Positions 4,647 to 28,419 of a stretch of 64,000 nt of DNA are shown piece after piece. Each line of letters opens with the position of its first letter. Positions within the stretch are counted from its first letter, which is position 1. The notes under the pieces were generated by a model, which was not told the DNA's origin, made no database searches, and saw only the letters and a list, made by a program, of their open reading frames with translations. The translations under genes and the position numbers were made by a program. The DNA is from Tubulanus polymorphus (lineage: Eukaryota > Animalia > Nemertea), in NCBI RefSeq assembly GCF_964204645.1, contig NC_134026.1:10935950-10999949 (forward strand). The letters are read 5' to 3'.

Positions 4647-5082
4647 AGCGGTGCAGATGGAGTTTTCAAGAAAAAAGAACCTATCCTAATTCGGTGATAT
4701 AAGTAACTAATTGGCATTACCCAATTCCCTTTCTCACTTCCGTAATTCCCTGCCTACATTATATTACAACGCTTTGAGTCTGAAAGAAAACATAACAAAA
4801 GGTAGAAATAAAAATGAAATATAAAGAAACCATATCACTGGAGGTTGTCGGTGGTGCCGTGGTGGAACATAAGTACAATAGTAGTAGTAGTAGCGGTGGT
4901 GCGCGCAAATATTTGAACAATTCGCTAGTTTTCGGTTTCTGGAGACGAGTCAGGTATGATTTCGGCAATCAATTTCAAAATATAACGGTCGCGCTCCTTC
5001 ACTTTGCGTGGTGATTTTGCGATGGCTACTAAGCCGAACAACTTAACCCTTTCCATTAACGATAACATTAAACGGCCGATAC

Positions 5083-7687: not shown

Positions 7688-10403
7688 CCCTGAAAAATCT
7701 TACCCTGAAACCGATCACGCAATAGCTACGTAATTACCGTAGCAACACATGGTTCCCACAGTACAGGAAAATTGGATAGGGGAAAACTTGATTATGTTGA
7801 ATGATATTTTAAGTTTGGAAATACTTATTTGGGAATAAAGAAATTTTCCTTTAGTCAGGGAAATATTGGTTTGTTTGTTTGTTTGTTTAGCCAAAGGGAT
7901 ACTTTCTTCAGCTATTTTTCTTGATAATCACCTTTTTTAGCCGATCACCACAAAAACTGTACTATAATGATATCGGTTCATTTTTACGAAGGCCCCTTTT
8001 TCCAATTGGAAAAAATAGAGAATAACCCATGTACTATCAAACTTAGGAAAAAGTTGGGAATTACTAATTCATGTTATAACTGTGAGAACCATGGCAACAG
8101 CAAGATACAATGGAAGTGTTGAAAGTGATGGGTTCGCGCCCCCTTCCGTACTCCTACTAAATATCAACTGGCAACTAATTTAGCGCTGGAAGTATGATAT
8201 ATTCGAATGTGGCAACTGGTATAGCACTGGAACTCTAGATATCTTGAACTAATAAATACAAGTTTGTTAACGTTAAATGAAAACACTATATCCGTGTAAA
8301 AGCGAGAATGTTTTTACAGGTGTTTTTAACGCCATTTCCAAAAAGATAAATGACGATAGAAAATGTATAAAAAAATGGTTACGCCAATCCAACGGCATGT
8401 ATCAACAGCAATTTTAGTTGACATCAACATCTTTTCAAATAGAAATAACGTAGAAACGTAGAAATAATGTAACGAATTTCTCAACGTTTTTTCAAAGTTG
8501 AATTAAGGTTGTGTGTTAGTTGGGGCATAAATACTGTTAGAATTTTTTATATTTGTATATACATGTATTTTATACTCCTCTATTGTACAAAACCAACGAT
8601 GTAAAACAGTCTTTACGGAGAAAATAAAGGTACTTTAAATTGAATTTGGCGCCCACCTGTCTATGTTTCAAGCCAATCAGATGCTTTGTTTTTCACCGGC
8701 AGGTTCGCTCTATCAATACCACGCATCTGATTGGCTAGATCTTATGTATCGTAGCCGCTGAGCGGCAACCTGCCGGGCGAAGAAATCTTAGGCAGTGTAT
8801 TAGACCCGGCAATAAGGGCCAGGATTTGTGTTGGTGAAATATTCGATAATGATAATTGAAAATGATAATATTTATCAACAGAATTTGAACGGTTTTCTGC
8901 ACAACCAGTGTACAAGTACAAGAACAACAAGTACAAGTACGTATGATATGATATGATATATCTATCTGAGTGACATTATGTGTATGATTAGTTCACTTAC
9001 AATTCTTTAACACTCAACCCTCGTGCCTCGTGGGTTGATGGTATATCCAGGACTGAAAAGTCACCTCACATTGCGCATGTATCTGCGTAGGTTACAACAC
9101 GTATTTCTCGGTTCCGAGATATTATTGTTAACAAATACACACAGATCCTTAACAGCCAATTGTTTATCGGAAATCTATAGTGGATAAATAAACAACATCA
9201 ACACAAGGTATTTCTGTGATATTTTGAATCTATTTGCAGTTTAAATTTAGCGCCATTCTCGCAGGATTGTCAACCAACCCGGAGCGGAAGTAAAATCCAA
9301 GCCAGTTTACAAGCCCCTGATTACTCGTCTTTATTGTATCCGTATGAAGTCTAAGGTGAGTGTAAGCGATTGGTGTGTATGGTTTATTCCTTATGAATGC
9401 ATGGAGGGCCTTTAAATTGTGTGAGACGTTTATAACATTGAGAATCACTGCGATGGGTGTTAGGTCTGCGGTACCCGGTACGTACGCGCGCGCGACACCG
9501 ACACCGGCTTCCACTTCAAAAATTATGAAAAAAATATTAGAAATAATCGACATCTGATATACACCAAATATACCTCTAAAGAAATGTATTTATAGCGTCG
9601 GATATTGTGTCGAGAATTTCAGATCTTCCAACCACACAGGGGCCGTATCTCACACATCCTCGCTTGCTAGGGGTCCGGTATCGCTCCCGAACTCGCTTCC
9701 ACCAGCCCCTGGGAAAACCTATTCCTTATTGATCTCTTGCTGCTCATAATAGTTCGTGGCTCCACTTCGCGAGATACCGTATCTCTTCATATGTGGTTGA
9801 AATGAATTACCTAGAAAAACGTTTCTTTTTAGAAAATATTCTGGAAAGCAGGCCCATTTTTCCTGGAAAAAAAATATTCCTAAAATTGGTCGGGTCTGGT
9901 GTATGAACCAATTAAGTTGATTGACAAGCGCAGCTTCGCACCTCAATTTGTCGATGACGTCAGATAGAAACAATGACATTACCACGTGCGCATGCAAACA
10001 GACAAATGAGAAAAAAATATTTTGATACATACACGTATTTGAATAAGCGTAACAGAGATTCCTTTGACTTTTGATTAATTATTTTAATCTAAGCCAGCTA
10101 GTGGATGGAATAATTCAATAGTCTCCATATTTTATTCCACAAAGTCTCACATAATTTCTGCCGACCTTTATTATTCTGCGTATGATATTAGATTTTTCTT
10201 TATTTTTAGGATATGAACAGCAAAGAAACATTTGGCAGATACATTTCATGACTGTTCACACCTGAGTCGATATTTCATAATTTTCTGATGTAACTCAGTA
10301 TTGCTGAAGATGGCTATTGTTGAAACTTTGGAATAAACCTCAAGCTCAAGGAAACATTTTCGTACTTCCCCATCATTATTGTAGAATCTCGTTATATTAT
10401 CAT

Positions 10404-10496
10404 AGTAATTGGAATATCAGGGGTTCAGATCAGAGGACGAGAGGACGAGACACCACTCATCACCACAAGTAATTTTTTTTCCTAATAAATGGGAGA
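10404..10496 (+). repeat. Left TIR of the Polinton (93 bp)
   Basis: AGTAATTGGAATATCAGGGG...TTTTTTTTCCTAATAAATGGGAGA is the exact reverse complement of 27665-27757; includes the ATG at 10489. Confidence 0.97.
10473..10491 (+). promoter_or_regulatory. Poxvirus-late-like promoter T(n)-N5-7-TAAATG (representative copy)
   Basis: TAAATG at ATGs 10489, 12288, 12826, 13719, 14847, 16125, 17609, 18951, 19400, 19816, 20062, 20422, 21282 and 27672; TAAATAATG at 21213; upstream T5-T8 run in 12 of 15 genes. The motif is seen directly; promoter function is inferred. Confidence 0.75.
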
Positions 10497-10815
10497 TAGA
10501 AAAGCATTCTTAGCAACAATGAATAACAGAATTAAACCAACAAAAAAACAATTTGAAATAAAAAAGTTAGTTGATGTTACAAAAGAAATTGAACATAAAA
10601 TATTGAAATTAGAAAAGATAAAAACTAAATATGGAGAGAAAGTATCAGCTAATTTAAGCTACTGTAATGTTAGTACATCACGAGAATTTAAAGTGTTTTT
10701 ACCCGATAAATGGGTTTCATTGAGTACAGAGGAATTGAAAGATTTAGTAGGATTTAAAATAATATATCATGGGAAAAATGAAGACGGTCATCATGATTTG
10801 GAAATTGTTGATTAA
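10489..10815 (+). CDS. Polinton hypothetical protein (108 aa), start codon inside the left TIR
   Basis: Intact ORF preceded by T8-CCTAA-TAAATG like the other element genes; no domain recognised. Confidence 0.7.
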   Translation: MGDRKAFLATMNNRIKPTKKQFEIKKLVDVTKEIEHKILKLEKIKTKYGEKVSANLSYCNVSTSREFKVFLPDKWVSLSTEELKDLVGFKIIYHGKNEDGHHDLEIVD

Positions 10816-11919
10816 ATAAAAAATAAAAATAATGAATATCTAAAAATGACCTTAGTCGTTTTATAAACAACTACAATCATACAGTCAAACATCTGTTACA
10901 TGTTATTACAAGAGAGTGCTTCATTTGAATATTGATCGATCAAACAGGTGTTGCACAACGTTGTTGTTATATAATAAGCACGCAGTACTTACAACACACA
11001 CAAGCCAGTTAGCCGGCATTGAACTACCGCGTTTTCATTAGTTGCTGAAAGCGAGGTTTATTTAAATTAGATAGGCCGTGACGAAGGATAGTCATCATTC
11101 TCTCGTGATTAAAAGGAATATTTCAATGTTTTTACGGTAAGTTTTAGCAAAATTGCCCTATCCTCGACCTATCCTCGAGTTTTCAGGGGATAAGCATCCC
11201 ATTATTGAAAGGCGCCACGGGACGCTTATCCCCCGTCATTTCTACTTACACCCCCGGCGACCCACGTCAACCGGGATCTCCTTCAATGATTGGTAGAAAT
11301 CACATTATATTAAAGGCGCCTAATGTAATTTCTACCAATCTCGAAATTCGAAACCGAAGGAGAAACCCGGAGAGTGGACGAAGGTGCATTTTCAAAATGC
11401 CTCTGCTGGCCAGAGCTATTCCAGTGTTTGAATGAATTACCTTATATACTTAGCTAAAACACCTAAGTAAATGTTGTTGGTGCTAAAAAAATATGTGAAA
11501 TTTGAAATTATAAATTATTCCGAATGAAAAGAATATAAGAATGAAAACTGATAAATGAATTATGGATTTTTAACTTAATTATGATATAATTTTTAATCAA
11601 ATTAGTAATCAATTACTATGTTAATTGATTAACAAATTCAAATTCAAATTCAAATATTCATTTCAGCATACCCAGTGTTGTCATCTTTCAATTTAAGAAA
11701 AAACTAATAATAAGAAACGACTGTAATACAATATTCAAGTAAAAACAAAATAAATTAATAAAAATAATGAATATCTAGAATCCGAAATGACTTATCTGGA
11801 CAATTTAATTGCTCCGCATAGATGGTGCCATAAACGGCACCCACACAGTGATAGACAAAAGTAGTGAGATATTCAATTAATTAAAAAAAATTATTTTTTT
11901 TTGCTTTTTTTCTAAAATA

Positions 11920-12288
11920 TTAATCCATTTTTTTTATTATCAATTTTGGAATTTCAGAAGTACTTTCATTTTTGATAGCAGTTGGTTCAGAATTACTAAT
12001 ATCATGAATTTTATTTGATTTCTTATACCAATTACACCCAATCAAAATGAATACAATTACAAATCCAACTGTAAAATATAAATATTTATCAAATATTCTA
12101 CTATCAGAAGGAGTAGAAATAACAATATTTTCACCATTTTTATTAACATTTTTATTACTTATTTTTTCTTTTACAGCTTTTTTATATTCTTGTGATTTAA
12201 TTCCTAATTGTCGAGACCATTCAATTTGTTTCTGAGTTCTCGGTTTTTTCTTCACAGTTAATTCCTTCACTTCTTTCACCTCGCTCAT
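11920..12288 (-). CDS. Polinton small membrane protein (122 aa)
   Basis: TAAATG start; basic N-terminus and one hydrophobic segment (YLYFTVGFVIVFILIGCNW). Confidence 0.7.
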   Translation of the reverse strand: MSEVKEVKELTVKKKPRTQKQIEWSRQLGIKSQEYKKAVKEKISNKNVNKNGENIVISTPSDSRIFDKYLYFTVGFVIVFILIGCNWYKKSNKIHDISNSEPTAIKNESTSEIPKLIIKKMD

Positions 12289-12826
12289 TTATTATAGAAA
12301 TATTTTTACTTTCAATATTTGAAAATGTTATAACCCCAGTTGATAATAATGTCATAAATCCACCTAATTGAAATGATAAATATCCAATCCATTTATTTAA
12401 TTCAGTCATAACTAAATAATCATTTTTTAAATCGGAATATAATCTATTTTCATCTTCAATTGGTAGTATATAATTACATAATTTACTATAACCTTTTACT
12501 ACATTTTCTGATATCGCGTCATTAATTTTAGCTGTTCTCGCGGCTTCATAAATCTTAAATAATCTAATAATTTCAACTGATTTCATTGTATCTAATTCAT
12601 TATAAGTTAAATTTTTATCGACAAATTTTTTACATTTTCCAGATGCTATTAATATTTCTAATTGATGTTTGCAATAAAGATAATATTCATAATTATTATT
12701 TGTTGTAACATTATTTAAAACACCATCATCTGGAATTAGTTTGTTTTCTGTTATTCCTAAATCATCTAAAGTTTTTTCAATTGGAACATCACCATCTTTA
12801 GATTTTATTTTCTTTTCACCTCCCAT
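12221..12826 (-). CDS. Polinton hypothetical protein (201 aa)
   Basis: T7-GTTATA-TAAATG start; intact ORF in the minus-strand gene array. Confidence 0.75.
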   Translation of the reverse strand: MGGEKKIKSKDGDVPIEKTLDDLGITENKLIPDDGVLNNVTTNNNYEYYLYCKHQLEILIASGKCKKFVDKNLTYNELDTMKSVEIIRLFKIYEAARTAKINDAISENVVKGYSKLCNYILPIEDENRLYSDLKNDYLVMTELNKWIGYLSFQLGGFMTLLSTGVITFSNIESKNISIINERGERSEGINCEEKTENSETN

Positions 12827-12860
12827 TTATATAACAAAAAAATTAATTGTGTGATGTTGC

Positions 12861-13105
12861 AACTAGAATTTAACTAGAATGTAACTAGAATTCAACTAGA
12901 TTAACAAGCTTGTTGAAATATTGTTGTTTTTGTTTATTTCTAGTTAAATCTAGTTGATTTTTGTTTCAACTACTAACAACTAGAATTCAACTAGAATGTA
13001 ACTAGAATTAAACTAGATTAACAAGCTAGTTAAAATATTGTTAAATCTATTTGATTTTTGTTACAACTACCAATAACTAGAATTCAACTAGATTAACAAA
13101 CTAAT
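12861..13105. repeat. Intergenic array of AACTAGA(A)T units (about 11-bp period) with higher-order duplication
   Basis: About ten direct AACTAGA copies in three blocks plus inverted TCTAGTT copies, between the ATPase stop and the next gene. Confidence 0.85.
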
Positions 13106-13110
13106 TGAAT

Positions 13111-13719
13111 TTAAATAAATTCATATTTAAATGGGTGTTGTAATCTAAATAGTAATTTTGATCTTTTAATATTTTTCAACTTATCCATATATTCATTATG
13201 TAAATCATGTGGAATAATATCATTTTCCTCAAGTGCATTTTTCATCGATTTTCTATCTTTATTGTAGAATAAAACTAGAAATCTAATGTTTTCGCTAAAG
13301 TCTTTAACAATTGAATTATATTTTTGATTTAAAACCCAAGTTGTTATCCCAAAATGTCTCCCAGAGAAAGCTAAATAGCATAACTCACTTTCTCTAACTT
13401 TTGAATCATGTAGATTAGCACAATCATCTATAATGAATAATGTATTTGATCCTTTATAAATATCAATTGCTATTTTAATACAATTATCTAAATTTTCTTT
13501 TACTGTTTTAGGATCTAATATAATAAATTTATTATTCCTAGTAATATTTCTATCATAAGTTTGATTAAATTCATATGTTGGACAAAATAATACTATATTA
13601 TGAAAATAGTTTTCATAAACAGTTTCTAATAAATTTAATATAAAATAAGTTTTTCCACAATTTGTTACACCAGAAATTAACATATTATGAGGCTCAAATA
13701 TGAATAATTCCTTATTCAT
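13111..13719 (-). CDS. A32/FtsK-like genome packaging ATPase
   Basis: Walker A ISGVTNCGKT, Walker B LFIIDD, GRH motif and downstream NQ; next to integrase and capsid genes. Confidence 0.9.
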   Translation of the reverse strand: MNKELFIFEPHNMLISGVTNCGKTYFILNLLETVYENYFHNIVLFCPTYEFNQTYDRNITRNNKFIILDPKTVKENLDNCIKIAIDIYKGSNTLFIIDDCANLHDSKVRESELCYLAFSGRHFGITTWVLNQKYNSIVKDFSENIRFLVLFYNKDRKSMKNALEENDIIPHDLHNEYMDKLKNIKRSKLLFRLQHPFKYEFI

Positions 13720-14847
13720 TTATATATTTTTAATTTTACTTGATAATATCCATTCATTGAATTTATCTGGCCATCCAACCCATTTTACTAAAGAATATTT
13801 TTTTCTTTTAATAGTTTTTGTTTTTAATACTTTTTCAATTTTATATTCTTGTTCTAGATTTTCAGTAGTTAAACTTAATTCTTCTTCGTAAAAGTAGCCA
13901 TCAACTTCTTCACCATCTAAATCTTCTAATTTATAGACATATGGTTTTGTTGTTATTACCTTTTTTATTTTATATATTTCTCTAGTAAAATTTCGATCGT
14001 ATCCTTTATCAAATATCTTTTTATACTTAGAAATTCTAACATTTTGACCAACTTTAAATTTAGGTTCACCAAAATCATCTACAAGAAATGCTCCATATAA
14101 ATTATTCCAAACAATTTCAGCATTTTCAGGTTTTCTAGCATCAATAGGTTTCATTCCAATAGAAGAATGATAAGAATTATTATATCCTTCTATCAATTTT
14201 GGTAAAACATCAATCCATTTAAAAGTATTATTTGCTGTAAAATATTTCTACATTCTTGTTCTTAATGTTCTATTAAATCGTTCAACAACTGCTGCTTTTT
14301 TATCTGATTTTGTTGAAAAATATTTAATATTATGATTATCTAAGAGTTCATGAACAAGTGAATTATCAAACTCTTTTCCATCATCAAATTGTATTTTTTC
14401 TGGTTTTAGTTTATCATCCGAAAGAGATTTTCTTAAAACATTTGATGTTTGTTCAGCATCTTTTCTATAAAGTGGGAAGCTCCATACATAACGACTAAAA
14501 ATATCAATTATATTCAATAACCACCAATAATCATCATTATCTTTCTTAACATTTTTCATATCAATTAAATCTCCTTGCCACTGTTGATCTACATAACTTA
14601 CCATAGTTTTACGAGTTTTAGATTTTCTAACAATTTTTTTATGTGTTGTGTATGTTGGTTGTTCTAACATAAATTCATTTATATCTTTATATTTAATTAA
14701 ATTGTGTGGGATTATCTTATCTAATTTATCTTGTTTTACTTTACGCCATATATTTTTAGTAGAAGAATAAGCAACTGAACTCTCAGGGTTGTAATATAAA
14801 TTTCTTAAATATTGTTCTTTAGTATTAGGAGATTTTTTACCACCCAT
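13720..14847 (-). pseudogene. Retroviral-type (rve) DDE integrase with C-terminal chromodomain; one in-frame stop
   Basis: WQGDLIDM / IQFDDGKEF / VVERFNRTL triad; TAG at 14248-14250 is followed in frame by KYFTANNTFKWIDVLPKLIEGYNNSYHSSIG; chromodomain YKIEKVLK...YSLVKWVGWPDKFNEWI. Confidence 0.92.
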
Positions 14848-14877
14848 TTATATACGCTTAATTTTAACTTTATATTT

Positions 14878-16125
14878 CTAATATTGAATACTATCTAATT
14901 GTGAATTTACTATATTTAATTGTGCATCAGATATAATATAAATGTGCATTTTAAAATTTTTGATTCCTTTATTCTTTGTCATGAATAATTGTATTCCATC
15001 TTTAGTGTTCTGTAGTTTTTTCCCAGAACCATGTAATGAATTATCCTCTGTTGTTCTAAAATCTAACCATAATGCATATTTACTACCGGTATAATAATCA
15101 ATTTGATTAATATTACAATTTTCAAATGATTTTACTTTTTCATTCATAAAATGTTTTCTAATTTCTGGCCATTGATCTATCATTCTCATTCCTTGACAAA
15201 ATATTTTATTTGCTATTCCTTCGATAGTTATTTCTACTTTTGTTATTTCAGGATTATAATAATTATCAACATTTATTGCGCCATTAGTATATGTTGCAAT
15301 GGTAAAAAATATTAATATACCTTTAATAGATCTTCTTGGGAAGTTAATATTCTCATTAATTATTTCATCATTTGCATTAATAGTTACGGTTTTAAATTTA
15401 TCAATATAATCATATAATAATGAAAATCCTTGATTGTATTTAGTTTGAATTATACTTGAAATATTTTCATCAGTTACTGTATCATATTCTAAACATATAT
15501 TCGATAATTTATAACTCATATCTTTATTAACGCTAGATAATACAATTTCATTTACAGGAGCAAATGTTATTTCGAATATAACGTCTTCTTGAATTGCGTA
15601 TTTATATAAAGGTGCATTATTATTTATCAATTCAAAATCTAATGGAATTTTATATTTGCTTCCATATATACTTTTTATCAATTTATCTACAGCATTAGTT
15701 AATATTGCGCTATTAGCTTCTGATCTTAATTTATTTTGGTTTTCTGATTGGATGCCTTGAAATATCATATTATTTCTATTTTCTTTAGTTAACCATAAAT
15801 CTTTATAATGCATAAATAAATTATAATCATCTAATGAGAAAACTGTTTCCGGACCAATCTTTATTGTTAACTTTTTAATCAAATATCTTCCAACATTATC
15901 AACAACATAATTATTATTATTACCGATTACTTTTATATCGGCCGATAAATAAATACTATTTGGAACATAAAAAGTATTTTTTGTTAATCTAGGAATTCTA
16001 ACGTATAAAGTTTCATCGGGATTAATATTTGAAGGGTTATGAGTAATTATACGATGTGATCTTTCTGCTTTAATAGCATAAGATATTCTAGAAATCTTAG
16101 AAGGATTGATATAACTCCCACTCAT
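14878..16125 (-). CDS. Major capsid protein (double jelly-roll), Polinton type
   Basis: 415-aa beta-rich ORF (THNPSNINPDETLYVRIPRL...YKLSNICLEYD...ALWLDFRT...LHGSG...YIISDAQLNI) resembling invertebrate Polinton capsid proteins; size and context fit. Confidence 0.8.
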   Translation of the reverse strand: MSGSYINPSKISRISYAIKAERSHRIITHNPSNINPDETLYVRIPRLTKNTFYVPNSIYLSADIKVIGNNNNYVVDNVGRYLIKKLTIKIGPETVFSLDDYNLFMHYKDLWLTKENRNNMIFQGIQSENQNKLRSEANSAILTNAVDKLIKSIYGSKYKIPLDFELINNNAPLYKYAIQEDVIFEITFAPVNEIVLSSVNKDMSYKLSNICLEYDTVTDENISSIIQTKYNQGFSLLYDYIDKFKTVTINANDEIINENINFPRRSIKGILIFFTIATYTNGAINVDNYYNPEITKVEITIEGIANKIFCQGMRMIDQWPEIRKHFMNEKVKSFENCNINQIDYYTGSKYALWLDFRTTEDNSLHGSGKKLQNTKDGIQLFMTKNKGIKNFKMHIYIISDAQLNIVNSQLDSIQY

Positions 16126-16145
16126 TTATTTAACAAAAAAATTAA

Positions 16146-17609
16146 TTATTTATTTTTTATTATGTTTACTAACCCAAAAATAATTGCACTTACAACTGTA
16201 ATTAAAAATAAAATAATATGTTCAGCAGCAAAGTTAATAATGTTTCCTGCAGATTTCAATATAAAACCAACAATTGATGCAATAACTCCTGGTAAAGCTG
16301 CAGCAGATTTCTTTGATAGTTCCCATAAATATTTTGCTAATTTCTTTAAACCATCTTTAACTTTATCTTGTATAGAATTATTATCATTCGGGGGTTTATC
16401 CGGTTTATTGGGAGTGGGAGTAGATTTCAAAGCATTTGATATAGCTAAACCAATTGTTGTAAATAACATAGTTACAGCTGTTAGAATTGAAAGAATTGTT
16501 ATTCCTTCTAACTTAAATAATAATTTTATTCTATCTTTCAATGATATTTCAGAATTTGGTTTTATTAGATATCTTTTAAAAACATCTTTTAACCTTTTAA
16601 AATTATTACCATATTCTTTTAATAATATATCTCTTTCTTCTTTCTGTAATTCTATATTATATTTTAAATCATCAATTTCTTTTTCTAAACGTAATTCTTT
16701 TTGCCTATATTCTATTTCTTCAATAACTTTATTATCTCTATCTAATTTCAATTGTTCTATTTCTTCATTTTTATCAGTTAATTCTTTTTCTAAAGTTCTA
16801 ATTTTAAAATCTATTATACTTTTATCATGTGCAATTTTATCAGATGCAAGCCTTATACTAATAATCTCTCTAATTGCTTTATCAGAAAATATATTTAAAT
16901 TTTCTAATTCTTGATCTGTTGCATCAAGTAATCCCTTCGGTAAAATTTTTTCAGTTTGAACTTCTCTTGAATTAGGTCTACTAGTTTTGGAATTAATAAC
17001 TTCTTTAGTAATTGTTTCTGTTTCTAAATTTTCATTAATTATCTTAAAAAATTTAGCATTTCTTTGTTTAAATTCTTTAAAATTAACAGTTCTTTCTTTT
17101 TTTGTAACATCAGTTATAACATCATTATTGATTTTCTTAATTCTAGATGGTTCTAATAAATTAGAAGTTGATTGTGTTATTATTTTATCGTTACTTTTAA
17201 TATTTAAAATAATAAAATAATAGTCGCCTTTCAATTTCCAATAATAAACGCCATTTAAATATTTCAAATCTTTTGCCAATTTATCCATACCTTTATCTGT
17301 TATATTGAAACCAGATTCTTTTAATATTGGTTTAAATTCATCAGTAATTTCATCATAATTTAATTCTTTATTTATTAAACCTGGGACTAAATTTTCAGCA
17401 CGTATTTTCGATCTAGCTCCTTTAATATATTCATTTGTTGATTGTGGTTTAGAACCAGGAACAACTTCGGGTGTATTTAAATTAGAATTATATGCTGTTT
17501 TATTATCATTACTATAACTTGTTTCACTAAAATCAAGTGGTTGTTCATCACTTATACCAGGTTCATCTAAAGGATCCACCAATGGAAAACCTTCTCCACC
17601 TTCTGCCAT
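16146..17609 (-). CDS. Coiled-coil protein with C-terminal hydrophobic/amphipathic helices (487 aa), putative virion membrane protein
   Basis: Long E/K-rich heptad region, then GITILSILTAVTMLFTTIGLAI, a Pro-rich linker, AAALPGVIASIVGFIL and HIILFLITVVSAIIFGLV. Confidence 0.8.
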   Translation of the reverse strand: MAEGGEGFPLVDPLDEPGISDEQPLDFSETSYSNDNKTAYNSNLNTPEVVPGSKPQSTNEYIKGARSKIRAENLVPGLINKELNYDEITDEFKPILKESGFNITDKGMDKLAKDLKYLNGVYYWKLKGDYYFIILNIKSNDKIITQSTSNLLEPSRIKKINNDVITDVTKKERTVNFKEFKQRNAKFFKIINENLETETITKEVINSKTSRPNSREVQTEKILPKGLLDATDQELENLNIFSDKAIREIISIRLASDKIAHDKSIIDFKIRTLEKELTDKNEEIEQLKLDRDNKVIEEIEYRQKELRLEKEIDDLKYNIELQKEERDILLKEYGNNFKRLKDVFKRYLIKPNSEISLKDRIKLLFKLEGITILSILTAVTMLFTTIGLAISNALKSTPTPNKPDKPPNDNNSIQDKVKDGLKKLAKYLWELSKKSAAALPGVIASIVGFILKSAGNIINFAAEHIILFLITVVSAIIFGLVNIIKNK

Positions 17610-17625
17610 TTACATAATAAAAAAA

Positions 17626-18951
17626 TTAAAATTTAAAATATAATATTCCTCCGATTACAATTCCTATATAAGTAAAAGCTAATTTAGTATTTTCATGGTA
17701 TTTATTATCATTATCAGTTTTAATTATATCATGTTGAATATTATCAGTTTTAATATTTTCTGTAGTATTGGAATCTTTTATTTTGGAATCATTATTTAAT
17801 TTGATATTATTAGTTTTAGTTTCAGTTGATTGAATGTGTTTTTTATTTTTTTCACCTTCCATTAATTTTGGAGCAGTGATAATCTTTTTATTTATATCAT
17901 TCAATCCAAATGAATTATTTATTGTTGCAGTTTTAATTAGATTATTATAACCAATTATATTTCCCATCTTTAATACTAAATCATTAGAAATAATAAATAG
18001 ATTAGGGCCTATACAATAATTTAATCTAATATGTGATTTATCTAAATAATTTTGATATCTTACAATGTTTTCTGGAATCGATCTATTTTTATCATTATGA
18101 ATTGAATCTTCAAATAATACTTTGAATTGTTTCTGCGCATCAAATGAAGTGTTATCATTTCCAATTATTGGGGATCTTGTTTCAACTTGCGCACCTAGAA
18201 TACATATCAAATAAGTTCTAATAGATTGATTTATTCTTTGTATTCCAGCTTTAGTAAAACCTTCACTATTTTCTAAAATGAAATTAACCCAACCATTATT
18301 GTTTTGTTGTTGTATATTATTATAATATTTTGGTAATTCATTCCAATTTAGTGTTCTTATATCTGAATTTGTCATTATTTTTCCAAATTCTTTAGTATAT
18401 AATATTCCTAATCCACCCATTGTTCCAATTTTTGCTCTAAAATCTTTATTTGAATTAATATTAAATTCATTACATATTTTATAAAACTTAGAAAAATTAA
18501 TATTATTATTCAATTCTTTAAAATATTTTGAACCTGGTAAAGGACATTCTAATTCATCTAATATTAATTTTATTTGAAAATATGTATGAAATCTAAAAAG
18601 TGATAACATCAATGGTAAACTTGGTTTGTTTAAATGATCATTCCAACTAATTCCACATCCTGTTGTTGCGCAATAAACAGCGAAATTTAATTGGTTCTGC
18701 CAATACTTCATATTAGATTTTGATAACCATTGTTTTGCCTCATTTAAATTTTTGAAATTAATTGTATACACATGAAATATATTTTCCATCTTTACATGAA
18801 AATTATTACTTTCAGTAACATAAATATATAAATCAATTAATGAATTTAAAACTTCATTTCTATATGTAATATCTTTATTAAAATCTATTGCTGGAATATT
18901 ATATTTAATTGATTTATTATATTGGAAAGCTTTTGGAAAACTATCGACCAT
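17626..18951 (-). CDS. Polinton hypothetical protein with C-terminal membrane anchor (441 aa)
   Basis: Intact ORF with TAAATG start, WQNQLNFAVYCATTGCGIS motif and terminal hydrophobic segment LAFTYIGIVIGGILYFKF. Confidence 0.8.
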   Translation of the reverse strand: MVDSFPKAFQYNKSIKYNIPAIDFNKDITYRNEVLNSLIDLYIYVTESNNFHVKMENIFHVYTINFKNLNEAKQWLSKSNMKYWQNQLNFAVYCATTGCGISWNDHLNKPSLPLMLSLFRFHTYFQIKLILDELECPLPGSKYFKELNNNINFSKFYKICNEFNINSNKDFRAKIGTMGGLGILYTKEFGKIMTNSDIRTLNWNELPKYYNNIQQQNNNGWVNFILENSEGFTKAGIQRINQSIRTYLICILGAQVETRSPIIGNDNTSFDAQKQFKVLFEDSIHNDKNRSIPENIVRYQNYLDKSHIRLNYCIGPNLFIISNDLVLKMGNIIGYNNLIKTATINNSFGLNDINKKIITAPKLMEGEKNKKHIQSTETKTNNIKLNNDSKIKDSNTTENIKTDNIQHDIIKTDNDNKYHENTKLAFTYIGIVIGGILYFKF

Positions 18952-18967
18952 TTATATAACTAAAAAA

Positions 18968-19400
18968 TTAATAATTTATTAATTCTTTTAATAATTTATC
19001 TTGTTCTTCAACTGTTATATGACCATTTAAACTTATGATATAATCTAGTGTGTTCTTTAATTTATTAATTTCTTTTATATTAGTTTTAATTTTTTCTTTA
19101 TTACTTTTTATATTTAATTTTGAACTTATACCGGTTAAAACACTTGAACTTAATCCTAACACACCAATTGATATAGCTAAAGGTGTTAATGGACTGAATA
19201 TTGCTAAAATGTTATTACAGAACTAATTGTAACCGAACCACTTATAATCAAATAATATATAATTTTACTTTTTAAATATTTTTTCTTTTTAACTTTTAAG
19301 TCACTTTCAAATTCTAATATTTGTTTTCTAAATATGTTTTTAATTTAGTTTTATTTATATCATGAGGAATAATATCAATACTATCAACTTTATCTTCCAT
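18968..19400 (-). pseudogene. Small membrane protein gene with two frameshifts
   Basis: Starts MEDKVDSIDIIPHDINK at T8-GCTAAA-TAAATG (ATG 19400); single-base losses in A/T runs near 19320 and 19207 would join it to the 18968-19162 ORF; two hydrophobic segments. Confidence 0.65.
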
Positions 19401-19424
19401 TTATTTAGCAAAAAAAATTACTAA

Positions 19425-19816
19425 TTAGTAAAACTTATAAGCAACAAATATAACAATAACTGTTCCACCTAAAATCCAAATTATTTCATATTTCTGTTGT
19501 TCTTTACTTGGGGTATAATAATCTGATAATGTAGGTTTGTATAGATGTAATTTTTCTTTATTTGTTACGGCGTTATATAATCTCTATGTGAGATCTTCTG
19601 ATCATATAATTCTTTATTGATGTAATCCATATAGTTTTGTCGTTTTTCTCTATATTCTTCTGCAGCTTTATTGTATTTCTCTAACGCTAAGTTATGTCTT
19701 CTTTGTTCTCCTAATGAACTATTTTTATCAATATGCTTAAATAAATAACCACCACCAGTAAATGCTAAAGCGTTAACAATTGCCGATCCTATAATAGTTA
19801 TAATTGCAGAAGCCAT
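19425..19816 (-). pseudogene. Small membrane protein gene, frameshifted near 19580
   Basis: MASAIITIIGSAIVNALAFTGGGYLF...RRHNLALEKY continues in another frame as KPTLSDYYTPSKEQQKYEIIWILGGTVIVIFVAYKFY*. Confidence 0.7.
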
Positions 19817-19840
19817 TTATTTAGCAAAAAAATTATGCAT

Positions 19841-20062
19841 TTATATAGGAGGAATATATTTTTGTTTTTCCAAATAATCAATTGTTAAATTAGATAAAGT
19901 AACTGCTAACGTTAATTTTAAAATATCATTTATATCAAATCTATCAACATTAACACTTCCCATTTTGAATACTTTTTTTAATACCATTGAATAACCAACA
20001 GTTCCAACTGATAGTAAGGCGCCATTATATAATCCAGTTATTATCCACTTATTATCACTCAT
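19841..20062 (-). CDS. Small hydrophobic Polinton protein (73 aa)
   Basis: T7-GATAAA-TAAATG start, coupled to the stop of the upstream gene; ends DYLEKQKYIP. Confidence 0.7.
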   Translation of the reverse strand: MSDNKWIITGLYNGALLSVGTVGYSMVLKKVFKMGSVNVDRFDINDILKLTLAVTLSNLTIDYLEKQKYIPPI

Positions 20063-20422
20063 TTATTTATCAAAAAAATTACTATCATCAAAATATTTAG
20101 TTATCTTATTTATGATTAATTCAACATTTATTTCATTACTACTTTGATGATTATCATATATTTCAATTATTATTTTTTTAATATCATCGATGATAAAATC
20201 TTCATCTAATTCATAAAATCTTAAAGATTCTCTAATTAAATTAGTAATCTTTTCTATATTTAAAGTTTCTTTATCTATTGTTGTTTCATACTCAAATGTT
20301 GTTTCATTAGAAAATGTAATATTTTTGATGTGTGTAATTACATCATTAATGTTAAATTTCATTTCTTTCTCACGTTTAAAATCAAACCCAAAACATATGC
20401 TCGGCCCAACAGTTATATTCAT
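20063..20422 (-). CDS. Polinton hypothetical protein (119 aa, acidic)
   Basis: T6-CACTATA-TAAATG start; ATGA overlap with the minor capsid stop. Confidence 0.65.
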   Translation of the reverse strand: MNITVGPSICFGFDFKREKEMKFNINDVITHIKNITFSNETTFEYETTIDKETLNIEKITNLIRESLRFYELDEDFIIDDIKKIIIEIYDNHQSSNEINVELIINKITKYFDDSNFFDK

Positions 20423-21213
20423 TTATATAGTGAAAAAATTACTCTTACATTACTCATGCATTTACATCTTATAACTAATTCATATATCACAGGAAAGTTA
20501 TTCAAATCAATTAAATATCCATTATGATTTCTTATTTCTAATTTAAAATTATTAAATTTAGGAATGCATGGTTTGAAATCACATTCAGTTAAATTATAAT
20601 TTATTTGAGTTCCAAATTGTTTAACATTTTTCAGCGGTAAAATATTTAATATACTAGAATTACAAATTGTATATTTAGTTGCTTCGAATGTTTTTGTAGG
20701 CTCGATTAAATTGCAATAAATATAAAAGTGTGTAAAAGGTATTATATTTGAATTACCATCTACGTTTCCTGTAACAGTATCTGGTGCAATTCCTAACAGT
20801 TTAGCTAATGGTTTTTTTACCATAAATGCATGTTGACTTTCATCATATACCTTTATTTTAATTTTATTTGTGCTATCACTTTTTATAAATCTAATTAAAG
20901 ATTTATCTTCTCTTCTAATTTTCAACGGTGCTCTTCGATTAATTTCTTGAGCTAATGTTTCTAAATTATATAATCCTGGTTTTAGAATTATATGAAACCA
21001 TTTATTTACATTTCCATTATGAATTAAAAAAGTATTATCTTCAATAGTTTTATCCGTTATATTATAAAAAGAATTACATAAACTTATATTAACTAATTTT
21101 AAATCTACACAATTTTTATATTCTCTATCTAATTGTACTAGTAAATTATGAGATTTATAATTTGTAAGTTTTCTAGAATCAACAAATATTCTGTATTCCT
21201 TTAATTCTACCAT
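20419..21213 (-). CDS. Minor capsid protein (penton, single jelly-roll)
   Basis: IFVDS...LKLVNISLCNSFYNI...PGLYNLETL...FYIYCNLI...LEIRNHNGYLIDLNNFPVIYELVIR pattern typical of Polinton/virophage pentons. Confidence 0.75.
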   Translation of the reverse strand: MVELKEYRIFVDSRKLTNYKSHNLLVQLDREYKNCVDLKLVNISLCNSFYNITDKTIEDNTFLIHNGNVNKWFHIILKPGLYNLETLAQEINRRAPLKIRREDKSLIRFIKSDSTNKIKIKVYDESQHAFMVKKPLAKLLGIAPDTVTGNVDGNSNIIPFTHFYIYCNLIEPTKTFEATKYTICNSSILNILPLKNVKQFGTQINYNLTECDFKPCIPKFNNFKLEIRNHNGYLIDLNNFPVIYELVIRCKCMSNVRVIFSLYK

Positions 21214-21281
21214 TATTTATAACATAAAAAAATTACCGCTCATCACTAAAAATTAATTTTAATAAAATTTTTCCTTAATAA

Positions 21282-22598
21282 ATGGATGAGAAGATAGCAT
21301 GCGAAATTTGTGGTGAACTTCTAAGAAAAAGCAATATGGCTCGACATATGAAAAAACATGATGAAAATTATAAACCCCCTAAAATAAACTGTCCAAAATG
21401 TAATAAATTATTCTCAAGAAATTATGTTAAAAAACATTCAGAGAAGTGTAGAATTAATGGCGCAACGGCTAATGTTGATAGTAATGAAAGTAATAGTAAT
21501 TCTGCTGAAGTTGAACCTGAAGTTATTTGGAAAAGACCTTTCTTATTCTATGATAAGGATAATATAAAAGATCATTTCTGTGAGCCTTGTCGAATAAAAT
21601 ATAGCCCTGAAAATATAGAAGATTGGGAGAATCATCAATTTCGTAAAGTACATATAGATAAAATTTCTAATAAATTTGAAACTGAATTTAATGAAAGAAA
21701 AAATAATTTATTAGAAAAAATAAAATATGAGAAAACGTTACCAGATAATGAAGAAACAGTTGAAAAGTTAGAAAAACAATATAATGAATTAACAAGAAAA
21801 ACATATTATTGTAAATATTGTAAATTGATTATTACAACAAGTAATTCAAATCTACATAATAGAACAATAAAACATAAAGAAAACGTAAGAAAATACCAAG
21901 AGCTTAATGAAGATCTACTACCAATAAATTATAAACAAAAATGCCCACAATGTATTTATGCGACCTTAAGGCAAGAAGGTACTGTGTTATTTTGTAATGA
22001 ATGTGGATGGCAAAAGAATTTATTGGGTGAAGAAAAAACTAGAGATTTTCTCATAGATCCAAAATTAAATTATCTAGATGAAATATTTAAAATATTTTCT
22101 ATGGAAGATCATACACCAGAATATATGCAATGGCTTGAAAAAATGAAAATAATAGAAAATAAAAATGGTGAAATAACTAAAAAAGATATTATAAAAACAA
22201 TTATTCCACCAACATTTAACACAAAACAAAAGAAAATGTATTTATATTTATTATTTAACGATTATTATGAAAAACCTAAATTAACAGAAGAAGATATGGA
22301 AAATATAAAGAAAATATTCAAACAAATATTAATGTATCATTTGGAAAATAGAATAACAGATTCAATAAATTATGAATTCTTTTTAAATAAGATTGTAAAT
22401 TATTTAAACCTAGATATTATAATTCCATTTGATGAATTAACAAACAAAAAGAAACAAAGAGAGCGAGATGAAATGTGGAACAAGATAGAACTTTATTTAA
22501 ATGAGAAAAATGGAATGGAAGAAGAACCTGAACAATTAAATGAAAATGAAGAAGCCAATAGTGATTTCGAGTATGATGATATTGATTTTATGTTTTAA
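21282..22598 (+). CDS. Zinc-finger protein with C-terminal VLTF3 (poxvirus A2)-like late transcription factor domain
   Basis: N-terminal C2H2-type fingers (CEIC...H, CPKC, CEPC...H, CKYC...HNRTIKH); Zn ribbon CPQC...EGTVLFCNECG; then KLNYLDEIF, PKLTEEDMENIKKIFKQI, SINYEFFLNKI and RERDEMWNKI, matching the VLTF3 family motif order as recalled. Confidence 0.7.
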   Translation: MDEKIACEICGELLRKSNMARHMKKHDENYKPPKINCPKCNKLFSRNYVKKHSEKCRINGATANVDSNESNSNSAEVEPEVIWKRPFLFYDKDNIKDHFCEPCRIKYSPENIEDWENHQFRKVHIDKISNKFETEFNERKNNLLEKIKYEKTLPDNEETVEKLEKQYNELTRKTYYCKYCKLIITTSNSNLHNRTIKHKENVRKYQELNEDLLPINYKQKCPQCIYATLRQEGTVLFCNECGWQKNLLGEEKTRDFLIDPKLNYLDEIFKIFSMEDHTPEYMQWLEKMKIIENKNGEITKKDIIKTIIPPTFNTKQKKMYLYLLFNDYYEKPKLTEEDMENIKKIFKQILMYHLENRITDSINYEFFLNKIVNYLNLDIIIPFDELTNKKKQRERDEMWNKIELYLNEKNGMEEEPEQLNENEEANSDFEYDDIDFMF

Positions 22599-25500
22599 TG
22601 ACCATAAGGTAATGTTTTTATACCATCATCTAAAATATGCCTTTTATCATCAAATGGATTTAAACTAGTTTTTTCAACTTCATTAATGTACATCTCGTGA
22701 TTTTCTGATCTTAAACAATTCATTTTATTTTTCATAACAATTGATTTATATAAACACTTTATATAATCTTGAAATTCTATATGTTTATCAACCACATGTT
22801 TTGTTATTCCTTTTAACTTTTTAGCTTCATGATCTTTTGTTCTATAACTATACATTTTACTTCTTATCCCAACGAATTCAATCATTTCATCACCCCCTAA
22901 TTCATCTTTAAACTTACCAGGAATCTTTTTATTATCATTGCTAAATAGTTCATGATCTTTGGGATAATTGCTAAATTCAAAATAATGTTTTAATGTTTTT
23001 AAGTCTTTTGTTATGTCATTTGTCTTGATTTTTAGTATGTACGCATCCGTATTGACTGCTATTAATGGAAATCCACAGTTAAATGTACCATCTTCAGTTG
23101 ATAAATCATAAACATAATCTGTTGGGTTATATATTTCAAATAAATCTTTAACTTCTTCTGTTAACTCATTTTCTACATGGCTTAAATTAAAACAATTTGG
23201 TTTAGATTTAATCAATCCAATATTCATATTAAAACCTAATGAATTGCATAATATATTCAATCCTGATATAGCAACTTTTCCTTTTTGAGCTAAAGATATT
23301 GTTTTGCGGTTTTTGAAACTTTTTGAACCATCTGCGGCATAGAATCCAATGAAGAACCATTTTCTTAAATTATTTTTTGCATTTAATACATAATCTGGCG
23401 CTATTTTTTCTTTAGTTGAAGTATTACTTTTCACTATTGCATGAATATAGAATTCATTATATTATATTTTATAGCAAAATCTTTAGGATTATTTACAAGT
23501 ATTCTATAAACTGCTGTTGATTTCATAACATCCATGATTCTAAATGTTTTATGTGAATAAACTTCTTCGCAAAATTTCTTTATTCTTTCTAATGATTTTA
23601 AGTCTTGATTGCATAAATACCAACAATATTTATTACCCCAAACATATTTATACACACCTGCTGAACCATCTCCCATGAAAAATCCTTTGATAAAATATTC
23701 TTTTTCTTCTAATGTTTCGGGTTCTATATTATAAATATTATCAATAATTTCATCAAATGACATATGATTCATTCTTTGGAAAAATCTTTTATGCAATAAT
23801 TCATCTCCAATTTTTATATCAGTTGGTTTTATTTCATCACCAATTCGTTTAATTAAACTATGATCTTCTGTAACATCTACAAATCCTAATTTAGTTCTAA
23901 CTATAGATTTTCTTATTTGTTTTATGCCTAATAATATTCTTTAATTTTTTCCATCCATTTCTTGTCCAAACATCCATTAAACCATTTATTTGTATTAATT
24001 CTTTTTCTCCATATGAAATATAACATTCATTTTGTTTTGGAATTATTTCTGAAATTCTTCTTACCAATATTTTATTATTACATTTTAATAATATTGGGGT
24101 GTCAGCTGTTACAGAATCAAAATATAATATTTCAATATGCTTTTCCCCAAAAAGTGGTTGTAAAACATTTTAATAAAAATCATACATTAATAATTTTGAT
24201 ACTTCTAAAACAGTCGAACCAATAAATATAGGTTTATTAAATTTCATTGATGTTCTTTTTAATTTAACTGCTGTTAAATAATCTTCAAATCTTTTATTTC
24301 CTAAATGTCTAGGACTTGATTGTAAATGTCTTAATCTTTCAGAATTATTTACTAATTCAATATCATTTCTATTTCTAATATTTTCACATGTTTTACCATA
24401 AAAACTATTATTCATTAATTTGAAGAAATCTTTTTCAAAATCTGTTTTTGATATTGTTCTCTGTTGAGTATTGAAATCTATATATTTTTCTAACCACTTC
24501 GATTGATTAAATTCAATATATCTATGTACTTTCTTTAATTTCATTCCTTGTTTTAGATAAAATTTTAACATTCTATAATGAACAATATAATTGTATTTAT
24601 TATTTTGAGTAAGTATTAATTTTTCTGTAAAAACATGATCTTTCGGTTTTATTTTCTTCTGGTATTCACTTAAATAACTATCATCTACAGTTAAATGTTC
24701 TGGGCAATAAGGTAAGTTTCTTGTTTTAAACTTTATATTTTCAGGATATTCTAAATCAACTACAAAGAAATAACCAATTGGTGCTTCATCTTTTAAACTC
24801 GCAATTGCGCTTTCCCAATCAGTTTTATCACCATTTTCAACTTCTGTTAATATAAAATTTTTATATGGTTGAGGTTGCATCATTGCCCAACCATATAAAT
24901 TATTGGCGTCAATATATAATAATTTATATTCATCATTTGCTTTAAAATACCTATCTCCCATAACACCACTAATTCCACCTCTAATTGATTTTTCAAATAA
25001 TAAAACCATATCTGGTTCTTTTAATAAATCTAATTCTACATTTGTATATTTTAAACCACATTGCCAGGTTAAACCAGGACTTGAATAATAATAACAAGGA
25101 TCAACATTAAAATGATTCAAATTAACTTCTCTAAATTTTTCAAATATGTCAGCTAATATCATAACATCTGATTTTAAATATAAATCAACTAATTCGCCAT
25201 GATTTTTCATCTTAAAATGGTTCCAAATATTTAATGTTCTATTAAAAACTTCGTCTTTCACATACTCCTCTTTTAATTGATCATAAAATTGATCTTTTAA
25301 TAATTCTGTTACATTAAAATCATTGTGTGTTTTATAAAATGAATAAGGAATTGCGCCTTTATATCTCAATAATTTAAAATCTTGTTCATTTGGATAATAA
25401 TATTGAGTTATAACAAAATCATTATCAACTAAACTTTTTGATAAATTATCTAATGAACTTGCTAGAAATCTATAAGAATCTAAAAATCTAATGCAACCAA

Positions 25501-27672
25501 ATTGAAATGAAATATAATTTTCAGATGTTTTAGCTAATAGTTTAAAATCATATTTTCTTACATTTGCTTCATTCATTATATTCTTCTATTGCATTATATT
25601 CTTCTATTTCTTGATTAATTGCGCCCAATTTTCCCGATAATTGTTTTATAAATAGATGGGTATCATAGCCTGATAAATTATGAAATAATATTGGTACGAA
25701 ATTAACTTTCTTAGCTTGTAAATTGCAATCTTCATGAGCAGCTCCACGATATTTTGAATTCAAATGATCATGATCTCTAACTTTTTTATCAAATGAATAA
25801 AAACGTTTTTCACAATAACAACAATGAGTTGCATAATTAAAATCAATTTTATCTTCTTTTGTCATAACTATTCTTTTATTTTTGTTTAATAATTTTGCAA
25901 AATCACTTTCTAATTCAATCATTTTATAACAAAAATCATTAACTACATTTTCACCTCTAAAAGAAATATATTGACTTTCATATAATTCAGGATAATTTGA
26001 TTTTATATAAATTCCATAAGCAGCAGCTCTTTGATGAACTTTTTTAATTGTATTTATAATTGGCGGGTCTTGTATTGTGTCTTCATTTAATTCATTTCCT
26101 TTATCCATTGATTTTAATAATTGCTTTTTGTTATATATTTCTTTTCTATCTTGATCAGTTAATTCTTTATTCAACGATTCAAAATCCCCATAAATTACAA
26201 ATGGAACAATATTCTTAAATTTATGATTAGTAAATTTCAATTTATAATCTTTTTCTGTTGGCATTATTAATTAACAAAAATCTTTATTATCACATAATTC
26301 TTTATGTTTTAGTAACGCATTCTCAGTCATAAATTTAGATAAACATTTTCTACATAGATAAATTTTATTATGATGATCACTTTCTGTTCTAAAGAATAAA
26401 TCAATTTGTTTTAACCACATATAATGTTCATTTTCATCTTTTTTTGTAATATAACAAATCTATAGCATTTTCATCATCATAATATTCTGTTAAATATAAA
26501 GCTTCCAATGTATAATCTTTAATATTTTCACCTTTTGTCTTTGGTAATTGCATTAATTCGAATACATTTATTTTTAAATTATTAACTTTTTCTATTTTAG
26601 GAATCATTTTTATAGTTACTGGATATTGATCAATTTTATATAATGTTTCATATTTCCGATAATCTGTTATTCTACAAACATTTTCCTGTGTTGGATGTAA
26701 GCAACTAATAATTGACCATAGAAAACATTTATTATCTTCATTTTGAATATTTATTACTGCTTTTGTTGTAAATGGTAATTTAATATAAGATGATGCTTTA
26801 ATATCCTTTTCTGTTGTAAAGTTTGAATCATTTTTAAACATTTTATTACTTTTTGATGTTTTATTTCTTTTTGTATTATAAACGTTTAAATCTAAATATA
26901 TAATTTCATTCAATGTTAAGCCAGAACCCTCAAAATATCTTTCTTCAATATGACGTTTAAATTCATTTAATATTTTTTCTAACTTCTCTTTTATTTGCGT
27001 TTTTGAAATTATTTCTTCAGAGAGTGTTTGAATATTATAATTCATTTTTTCTTCTGACTTTATAAAACTTACTTTCCCAGAGATACTAATTTTTGGATAT
27101 TCAACATCTGTTATCAAATCTAGTATTTTTTCTATTATTTCATTAAATTTACTATAATCTTCCATTGTTTTTCCTTTAAAGAATCTAAATATAATAGCTG
27201 CAGGACCAATTTTACTATGTAATGTTTCTAAAATTTCAATTGTATCTTTTATTTCTAGTGAATCAATATAATTTCTAACATTTTCCATGTAAGGTTTATT
27301 TGAAATGGATTTAGTTTTTGAAGTTGGTTTTTTTACTTTTTGAGGTTTATCATCAAAATAATCTTTTCCTAAAACATTATTACTCAAATTTTGGTGGTGT
27401 TTTTGTGATTCGAGATGTCTATTATAATTCCTTTTTACTATAAATTCATTACAAACTTCACATTTTATTTCATCCACATTCATATTTTCTAATCGTTCTT
27501 TTCTTTCATTGGAATTTTCTGGGGTTTCAAAATCTATTACATTTTTTATATGATTTGCAGTTTTTTCATGTCGTGTTTTATTAGATGTATCGACGTATTT
27601 TTTACAATATTGGCAATAATATTGATTTTTATTAACATTATTGTTTTCTGGCTGGTGTTCATTCTCTCCCAT
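22595..27672 (-). pseudogene. pPolB: Protein-primed family B DNA polymerase (N-terminal Zn fingers, OTU-like region, exonuclease with HNH/EndoVII insert, polymerase), intein-containing, disrupted
   Basis: ExoI VIYGDFES, ExoII FHNLSGYD, ExoIII YLKSDV, motif A YIDANNLYGWAM, motif B KLMNNSFYGK, motif C YFD|TDA split by the intein, then GKFKDE, SKMY, KLKGI, FDDKR. Lesions: frameshifts near 26440, 25575, 23903 and 23445; in-frame stops at about 26271-26273 and 24170-24172. Confidence 0.95.
23051..24115 (-). mobile_element. Intein with LAGLIDADG homing endonuclease (about 355 codons) in pPolB motif C
   Basis: N-junction ILYFD|SVTADTPILLK (block A); block B VDVTEDHSL; two LAGLIDADG helices FIKGFFMGDG and FFIGFYAADG; blocks F/G YVYDLSTEDGTFNCGFPLIAVN|TDAY. 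Removing it restores YFDTDA. Confidence 0.93.
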
Positions 27673-27757
27673 TTATTAGGAAAAAAAATTACTTGTGGTG
27701 ATGAGTGGTGTCTCGTCCTCTCGTCCTCTGATCTGAACCCCTGATATTCCAATTACT
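27665..27757 (-). repeat. Right TIR of the Polinton (93 bp)
   Basis: Exact inverted copy of 10404-10496; contains the pPolB ATG (27672); followed by TSD TATCAT. Confidence 0.97.
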
Positions 27758-28419
27758 TATCATCACAGCACTGATATAGTGTTTTATCAATCTTGTTACG
27801 TGGCTACATTCAATTTATTTAATAAATCTTTTTGTCCTTTACTCGAGTTTTCCAGTGGTTACAACTTGGTTCACTTATTTGCATCATCTAACCACCAATG
27901 ATAAGTCTTTAAGCTGACTCCTGAAATGGAATAATCTTGACTAAACCTTGATTGGTTACTAAGTTCTATTCACACATCGATGACTGAATTACTAGTTTGC
28001 CAATCTATGTAACTATTCCTAATAAGACTGCTTCTTCGAACCTCGGGACTCTAAAGTCCTCTTGTTTTTTTACAATTTTCCTTTTGATATGCTAACCGGC
28101 ATGATCAGTTGATACAATTGCTGCCCGGGTACTGTTTAGTAAAAGCACCGTACCTAATTAGTATTCAACTCACTGACTTTAAGTTATGAACTGAACCTGA
28201 GTAACCACAGTCGTCTGAGTACTATAAACTGGAAGTATTTCCCACACATGGCTTCTAAAATCATCATTATGATATTTTTAGAAATGTCTTGAGTCAGGTT
28301 TTTTCTTGACTCCTATAAAGTGACACTCATTCTGCTTTCGAAAAACCCTTGTCTTGAAGACAATTTCCAAAACTACCTACCGCCGTGTCCAATCATCATT
28401 TTCTATCGTATGCCGTTTC

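Follow-up and report, generated by a model that had tools for sequence, protein, structure and literature searches.

Maverick/Polinton viruses (Polintoviricetes; adintoviruses, PMC8502044) have terminal inverted repeats (TIRs), a 6-bp target-site duplication, a DNA polymerase B that is primed by a protein (pPolB), an rve integrase with a chromodomain, an A32-type packaging ATPase and a double jelly-roll capsid in common with the element described here, a Polinton of 17,354 bp at positions 10404-27757 of a 64,000-nt stretch of the genome of the nemertean Tubulanus polymorphus (contig NC_134026.1; hereafter the window). A likeness of another kind is offered, in the accounts available, by mavirus with Cafeteria roenbergensis virus (CroV) and Gezel-14T with Phaeocystis globosa virus (PgV), which combine pPolB and an rve integrase with integration, the lack of an RNA polymerase and a single motif before nearly all genes. 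The element differs from these two in its Polinton-type capsid, its likely animal host and a start motif that is of poxvirus type, not TCTA or AAAATTGA. The genes of this Polinton start at late initiators of poxvirus type, and on the evidence given below its working relatives would therefore, with moderate confidence, be satellites whose transcription falls to the RNA polymerase of a pox-type DNA virus infecting the same cells.

An association between Polinton-like viruses (PLVs) and poxviruses has a precedent in entomopoxvirus occlusion bodies, whose PLVs were proposed, in the part of that report available, as hyperparasites of poxviruses in animals (Barth et al. 2024, PMC11296320). Those elements, of about 12 kb, with a protease and without rve, are unlike the present one, and their link to a poxvirus is the occlusion body, whereas the link proposed here is the promoter, with no helper in hand; the words "promoter", "transcription" and "TAAAT" do not occur in that article. 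The presence of VLTF3 in a Polinton-related genome is likewise shared with coral polintoviruses (PMC11131425) and Zephyr PLVs (bioRxiv 10.64898/2026.06.19.733378), as the accessible portions of those reports describe them, and the word "promoter" does not occur in the main text of either. No description of TAAATG promoters in Polintons was found in the literature searched, which for the most part did not include subscription papers or supplements. VLTF3 in polintoviruses and PLVs in entomopoxvirus preparations have already been published, and what appears novel is the promoter signature.

The signature is first of all a property of the gene starts of the element. TAAATG opens 14 of the 15 genes, the remaining one being TAAATAATG at the probable minor capsid gene, against a background in which TAA precedes 50 of the 680 ATG triplets of the element (P about 2e-15 for the gene starts). 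A T-run ends 5-7 nt upstream in 11 of the 14 TAAATG starts, and the composite pattern of five or more T, 4-9 nt and TAAATG is found 13 times in the element, where 1.6 occurrences are expected (300 simulations, maximum 8), and not once in the 46.6 kb of flanking sequence. Either TIR includes a T-run and TAAATG together with the ATG of a terminal gene. An earlier note on this DNA, made from its letters without database searches, had described element-wide T-run/TAAATG starts, and the counts bear it out. In the sections of the literature consulted, vaccinia late and intermediate promoters consist of a T-rich core, 5-7 bp and TAAAT followed by G or A (PMC5294985), and the salmon gill poxvirus has kept TAAATG at conserved genes (PMC4542343). 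Read at the sequence level, the T-run/5-7 nt/TAAATG arrangement is that of a vaccinia late promoter.

The distribution of the motif among related Polintons argues for a lineage-specific trait. Homologs of the capsid number 924. The comparison loci, retrieved by pattern scans with an alignment of capsid homologs, are 80 from metagenomes, the best of 232, and three from genomes. A quick capsid tree of 65 rows, from which partial and stop-containing matches were excluded, places the window together with 13 loci in a clade of 14 rows with a branch support of 98 (Shimodaira-Hasegawa-like approximate likelihood ratio test, SH-aLRT). The 15 clade loci, some of them near-duplicates, have TAAATG at 55 of their 64 open reading frames (ORFs) and the 66 outgroup loci at 5 of 389, two further loci (L015, 0/2; L060, 0/4) being tallied apart from both; the AT-rich part of the outgroup (14 loci) has it at 1 of 50 ORFs. 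At orthologous starts, for which L015 was placed in the clade, TAAATG is present in 28 of 32 clade cases and in none of 133 outgroup cases, 0/30 in the low-GC outgroup, and the motif is retained in clade loci of 36-44% GC. Among the fetched loci it is thus confined to one capsid clade and independent of AT content. The purine at position -3 prescribed by the Kozak rule is found in 30/30 low-GC and 93/103 high-GC outgroup starts, whereas 29 of the 32 clade starts carry T there, and the clade has thus lost the Kozak purine. The confinement of the motif to a clade, its independence of AT content and its replacement of the -3 purine all support dependence on pox-type transcription.

A similar signature is seen beyond this clade. 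The 9-kb viral contig L085 (1-9034) has TAAATG at 7/7 ORFs, with an ATPase unlike that of the window and a polymerase that branches apart, and hence TAAATG starts are present in more than one Polinton lineage. On long branches, the L085 integrase joins the clade and the outgroup locus L051; it bears a long N-terminal extension that is presumably protease-like.

The remaining gene content of the element fits the same picture in part. The earlier note had counted a VLTF3-like factor among its evidence and had named a failure of that gene to match VLTF3 as grounds for giving up its reading; residues 214-423 of the product, taken as an isolated domain, match PF04947 (E=5.9e-6; bit score 26.5, cut-off 25), and the Atlas comparison scores 0.96, with 28 of 30 matches in PF04947 (VLTF3) clusters. 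The whole protein has no Pfam match to PF04947, its word-indexed sequence search gave no match, and its PDB profile search gave zinc-finger matches only; its single-sequence model is poor (predicted local distance difference test, pLDDT, 48), and a fold search with that model returned nothing significant, with several VLTF3 entries among the 50 matches listed. A search of 1.84 billion representatives yielded only three homologs, and none of the three matches PF04947 as a whole protein. The VLTF3 domain itself was matched in 0 of the 83 fetched loci, and the N-terminus of one of the three homologs (P0158) resembles the truncated last ORF of the clade locus L003; VLTF3 is accordingly linked to the clade through two elements only, the window and, by its matching N-terminus, L003. 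The VLTF3-type gene of L003 adjoins a deoxynucleoside kinase (10343-10981; PF01712, E=1.7e-31).

The intein reported in the earlier note does sit in motif C of PolB, between its D and TD (YFD|S...N|TD), with a Ser start, an Asn end and a Thr following. The junction words are identical in most of its 42 homologs, the closest of which (up to 63%) lie in Polinton-type polymerases or fragments of them; most of the others occupy the same site in RNA-primed PolBs, and five belong to topoisomerase/gyrase proteins. Large DNA viruses encode Pol-delta-like polymerases, and the intein is a record of contact with large-virus-type polymerases. It is a weaker clue than the earlier note made it and does not point to a poxvirus, its nearest kin being in Polinton polymerases and then in Pol-delta-like enzymes. 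One clade member, L008, has a PolB without the intein.

The anatomy of the element (Table 1) confirms the TIRs, target duplication, capsid, packaging ATPase, rve integrase and pPolB of the earlier description through a perfect inverted repeat, Pfam matches and fold matches. The element has a GC content of 24% and is 90% coding, with flanks of about 37% GC. Near-zero intergenic space holds for 10 of 14 intergenic gaps, which are of 30 nt or less or overlapping, but not for gaps of 1104, 284 and 68 nt, the fourth remaining junction being a 68-nt overlap. A Pfam scan of the element in 24 pieces found no RNA polymerase, again as first described, no VLTF2 or clamp, and no adenovirus-type cysteine protease, a feature of Maverick/Polinton group 1; a set of 20 accessory ORFs likewise yielded no subunit of a poxvirus RNA polymerase. 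Vaccinia and the yeast pGKL linear elements encode their own RNA polymerase, and the present element does not. The major capsid protein (415 aa), modelled with 46 homologs (pLDDT 87), matches double jelly-roll capsids (E about 1e-17), with virophage capsids at ranks 32 and 48 and 10-11% identity. No significant profile match was obtained for the conserved 264-aa product that size, position and conservation mark as the probable minor capsid protein.

Table 1. Features of the Tubulanus polymorphus Polinton and its boundaries, in window coordinates.
Position	Strand	Feature	Start	Remarks
10398..10403		Left target-site duplication		TATCAT
10404..10496	+	Left TIR, 93 nt	T8-N5-TAAATG	Includes first-gene start
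10489..10815	+	108-aa gene, no family	TAAATG	L003 homolog 72% identical
10822..11780		Non-coding segment		Flanked by 24-nt direct repeats; two strong hairpins
11920..12288	-	122-aa gene, hydrophobic stretch	TAAATG	Clade-conserved
12221..12826	-	201-aa conserved gene, no function assigned	TAAATG	
12860..13110		Intergenic degenerate repeats		Direct and inverted
13111..13719	-	A32-type packaging ATPase	TAAATG	Open frame; Pox_A32 PF04665 E=1.9e-12
13720..14847	-	rve integrase with chromodomain	TAAATG	One in-frame stop, 14248-14250; PF00665 E=1.3e-10
14878..16125	-	Major capsid protein, double jelly-roll	TAAATG	Open frame
16146..17609	-	487-aa coiled-coil/hydrophobic protein	TAAATG	Kept across related Polintons
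17626..18951	-	441-aa conserved protein, no family	TAAATG	
18968..19400	-	Two-membrane-helix gene	TAAATG	Two frameshifts
19425..19816	-	Small hydrophobic conserved gene	TAAATG	One frameshift near 19570
19841..20062	-	73-aa hydrophobic conserved gene	TAAATG	TAA is the stop of the preceding gene
20063..20422	-	119-aa gene	TAAATG	L003 homolog 66% identical
20419..21213	-	Probable minor capsid gene	TAAATAATG	
21282..22598	+	Zinc-finger protein, C-terminal zinc ribbon and VLTF3 domain	TAAATG	Open frame
22595..27672	-	Protein-primed PolB, broken		DNA_pol_B_2 PF03175 E=3.5e-17
23051..24115	-	Intein with LAGLIDADG remnant, in PolB motif C		Two frameshifts of its own
27665..27757	-	Right TIR, 93 nt		
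27758..27763		Right target-site duplication		TATCAT

The gene set of the element is that of the 66 outgroup Polinton loci, and it departs from other Polintons in its TAAATG starts with T at -3, its VLTF3 gene, its intein and the lack of a detected cysteine protease. It probably belongs to Polinton group 2, a label that we assign from the missing protease, not from reference sequences. The marks of a virophage, a virophage-type capsid and a maturation protease, were not found, its relatives being Polintons and no protease being detected; two marks of a virophage-like lifestyle, a large-virus-type motif before most genes and no RNA polymerase of its own, are present.

Although the layout of the element is complete, as the earlier note had it, a six-frame map reveals 10 breaks in four genes of this copy, including four frameshifts and two stops in PolB besides those of the integrase and the two genes at 18968-19400 and 19425-19816. 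With PolB and integrase both broken, the copy is unable to replicate or integrate on its own. Its family is numerous. In run X7, which consists of raw DNA reads from organism A, depth is about 160-870 over the element and about 7 on unique flank, a ratio that gives tens to about a hundred copies. Reads from sister copies depart from the present copy at several break sites, so that several of the breaks look private to it. Joints that skip the element, seen in one contig of run X1 and in four reads of X7, show the insertion to be polymorphic within the species. In X1 the DNA of the element seemed to be in thousand-fold excess, a figure rejected as being mostly the sum of overlapping contigs; single contigs give about 3,600-4,600 against 36-38 for unique flank, near the X7 raw-read ratio. 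Run X1 also holds an 83-kb contig, unusual beside the short host contigs, that could come from a symbiont or a large virus.

Several observations concern single parts of the window. The hairpins of the non-coding segment (11186-11233 and 11288-11340; z -6.7) have the loop word AAAGGCGCC in common, and the segment, whose read depth resembles that of the remainder of the element, has no match in Rfam or in the fetched loci. The two-membrane-helix gene has a homolog in L003 that matches SLATT weakly (E=1.3e-3, under the cut-off). Outside the Polinton lie a minus-strand remnant of a long interspersed nuclear element with endonuclease and reverse transcriptase (1049-4685), a foldback-type element whose perfect inverted repeat of 1,604 nt consists of minisatellites of 43 and 50 nt (34764-38458), a second inverted repeat of 569 nt (39816-41582) and short arrays of 31-nt CGCG-rich tandem repeats (5137-5314 and 53084-53298). 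A minus-strand open frame of 195 codons (57090-57674), with one membrane helix and no Pfam or PDB match, is possibly a host exon.

In the mechanism that the pox-type satellite reading implies, linear element DNA would reach the cytoplasmic factory of a helper-infected cell and be copied there by the protein-primed polymerase that the element itself encodes. Transcription by the polymerase of the helper would begin within the AAA of TAAAT, where slippage would add a poly(A) leader, so that T would be tolerated at -3 and a 5' untranslated region (UTR) would be unnecessary; leaders made by slippage at TAAA initiators are described, in the passages available, for vaccinia and for yeast linear elements (PMC6211774). 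All genes, polymerase and integrase included, would be late, as in mavirus, and transcribed from replicated DNA. The VLTF3 of the element, itself driven by a late promoter, would be unable to start the cycle and would act as an amplifier, recruiting the helper polymerase to element promoters, while capsid, ATPase and integrase would package and reinsert the genome. Virophages and their helpers have late promoters in common (PMC6428243), and mavirus serves as the model, the step of waking a nuclear copy included, in the parts of those sources available (bioRxiv 068312; PMC6428243). Adintovirus mobilisation has been reported, in the portion of that study accessible, in baculovirus-infected cells (Starrett et al., PMC8502044).

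Pox-type transcription dependence, the core of the earlier note, therefore keeps the clade-confined motif, the T at -3 and the VLTF3 match on its side, but several results weigh against it; the further steps of that note, silence in the nucleus, expression on infection and an antiviral role, are predictions. The helper virus was not found in scans of IMG/VR with VLTF3, the kinase or the promoter pattern: no loci came from the capsid, ATPase and VLTF3 scans, the L003 kinase matched a single locus, at 37%, in which 1 of 16 ORFs is preceded by TAAATG, and the promoter pattern gave 63 loci, none with pervasive TAAATG starts (best 4/8). TAAATG stands at 4 of 10-14 starts in three large-virus loci, presumably phycodnavirus-like, and in a 299-kb contig, so that the word is not exclusive to poxviruses. 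The clade counts have about ten independent elements behind them. Codon-shuffle tests of the early terminator TTTTTNT, the polyadenylation signal AATAAA and splice donors failed to tell clade and outgroup apart: TTTTTNT is at 0.41-0.51 of expected in the clade and 0.61-0.68 in the outgroups, a small difference, and AATAAA is depleted in neither. Of the RNA-primed PolBs that host the intein, both of those tested (2/2) lie nearest Pol delta among solved structures, not near the vaccinia type. Transcription of coral polintoviruses is described in colonies for which no helper is reported, and no promoter type is given in the accessible part of that report (PMC11131425). Lastly, VLTF3 is known in polintoviruses and also in the mriyaviruses, which have VLTF2/3 without an RNA polymerase and are thought, in the text available, to be nuclear and to use host Pol II (PMC11253617), so that VLTF3 would be a weaker clue than first offered.

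The mriyaviruses lead directly to another explanation, in which the element is autonomous and nuclear and its VLTF3, presumably a TFIIB-like factor, brings host Pol II to the T-run/TAAAT sites, a role already proposed in nuclear viruses that lack an RNA polymerase and keep VLTF3. The open VLTF3 frame agrees with this, and tens to about a hundred copies are more easily reached without a helper. The VLTF3 gene itself starts at TAAATG, however, leaving nothing to start the loop, the VLTF2 or clamp was not found among the scanned pieces, and T at -3 with no room for a 5' UTR points to slippage-made leaders and not to ordinary Pol II scanning; the nuclear explanation is thus unlikely. The helper could also be of another kind, either a large DNA virus outside the pox type or a linear plasmid of the cytoplasm with a TAAA-type initiator. 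The intein at the same site in Pol-delta-like polymerases, the partial use of TAAATG in other large viruses and the lack of any marine-invertebrate poxvirus in the literature searched would suit such a helper, as would the TAAAN initiators and slippage described, in the part available, for yeast linear elements (PMC6211774). It is nonetheless distinctly improbable, since other late motifs are reported for African swine fever virus (ASFV), mimivirus and CroV, the T-run/5-7 nt/TAAATG arrangement has the spacing of vaccinia, and the intein, optional in the clade, may derive via other Polintons.

Furthermore, TAAATG might not be a promoter at all, but a translation device providing a stop and then a start on read-through messages, or a by-product of AT pressure. 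Tight gene packing and two true stop-start abutments would allow for this; yet the TAA is the stop of a preceding gene in only those two of the 14 TAAATG starts, while the other 12, both of those in the TIRs included, terminate no upstream gene. The upstream T-run at fixed spacing and the near absence of the motif from AT-rich outgroups (1/50 ORFs; 0/30 orthologous starts) likewise disagree, and this explanation is very improbable.

The satellite reading can be carried further, to a scenario in which at least two lineages of marine-animal Polintons rewired every gene to poxvirus late promoters and became integrating satellites of undiscovered invertebrate pox-type viruses, whose chromosomal copies would wake on infection and curb the helper in an inherited defence like that of mavirus. 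This broader scenario is doubtful, and host protection, which would follow by analogy to mavirus, is its largest and least supported claim. A clade-wide switch to late initiators would provide a marker, readable in the sequence, by which Polintons could be sorted according to lifestyle, and it bears on how animal Polintons are expressed and on whether they need a helper virus. The satellite reading, if true, would also point to pox-type viruses in hosts that have none on record.

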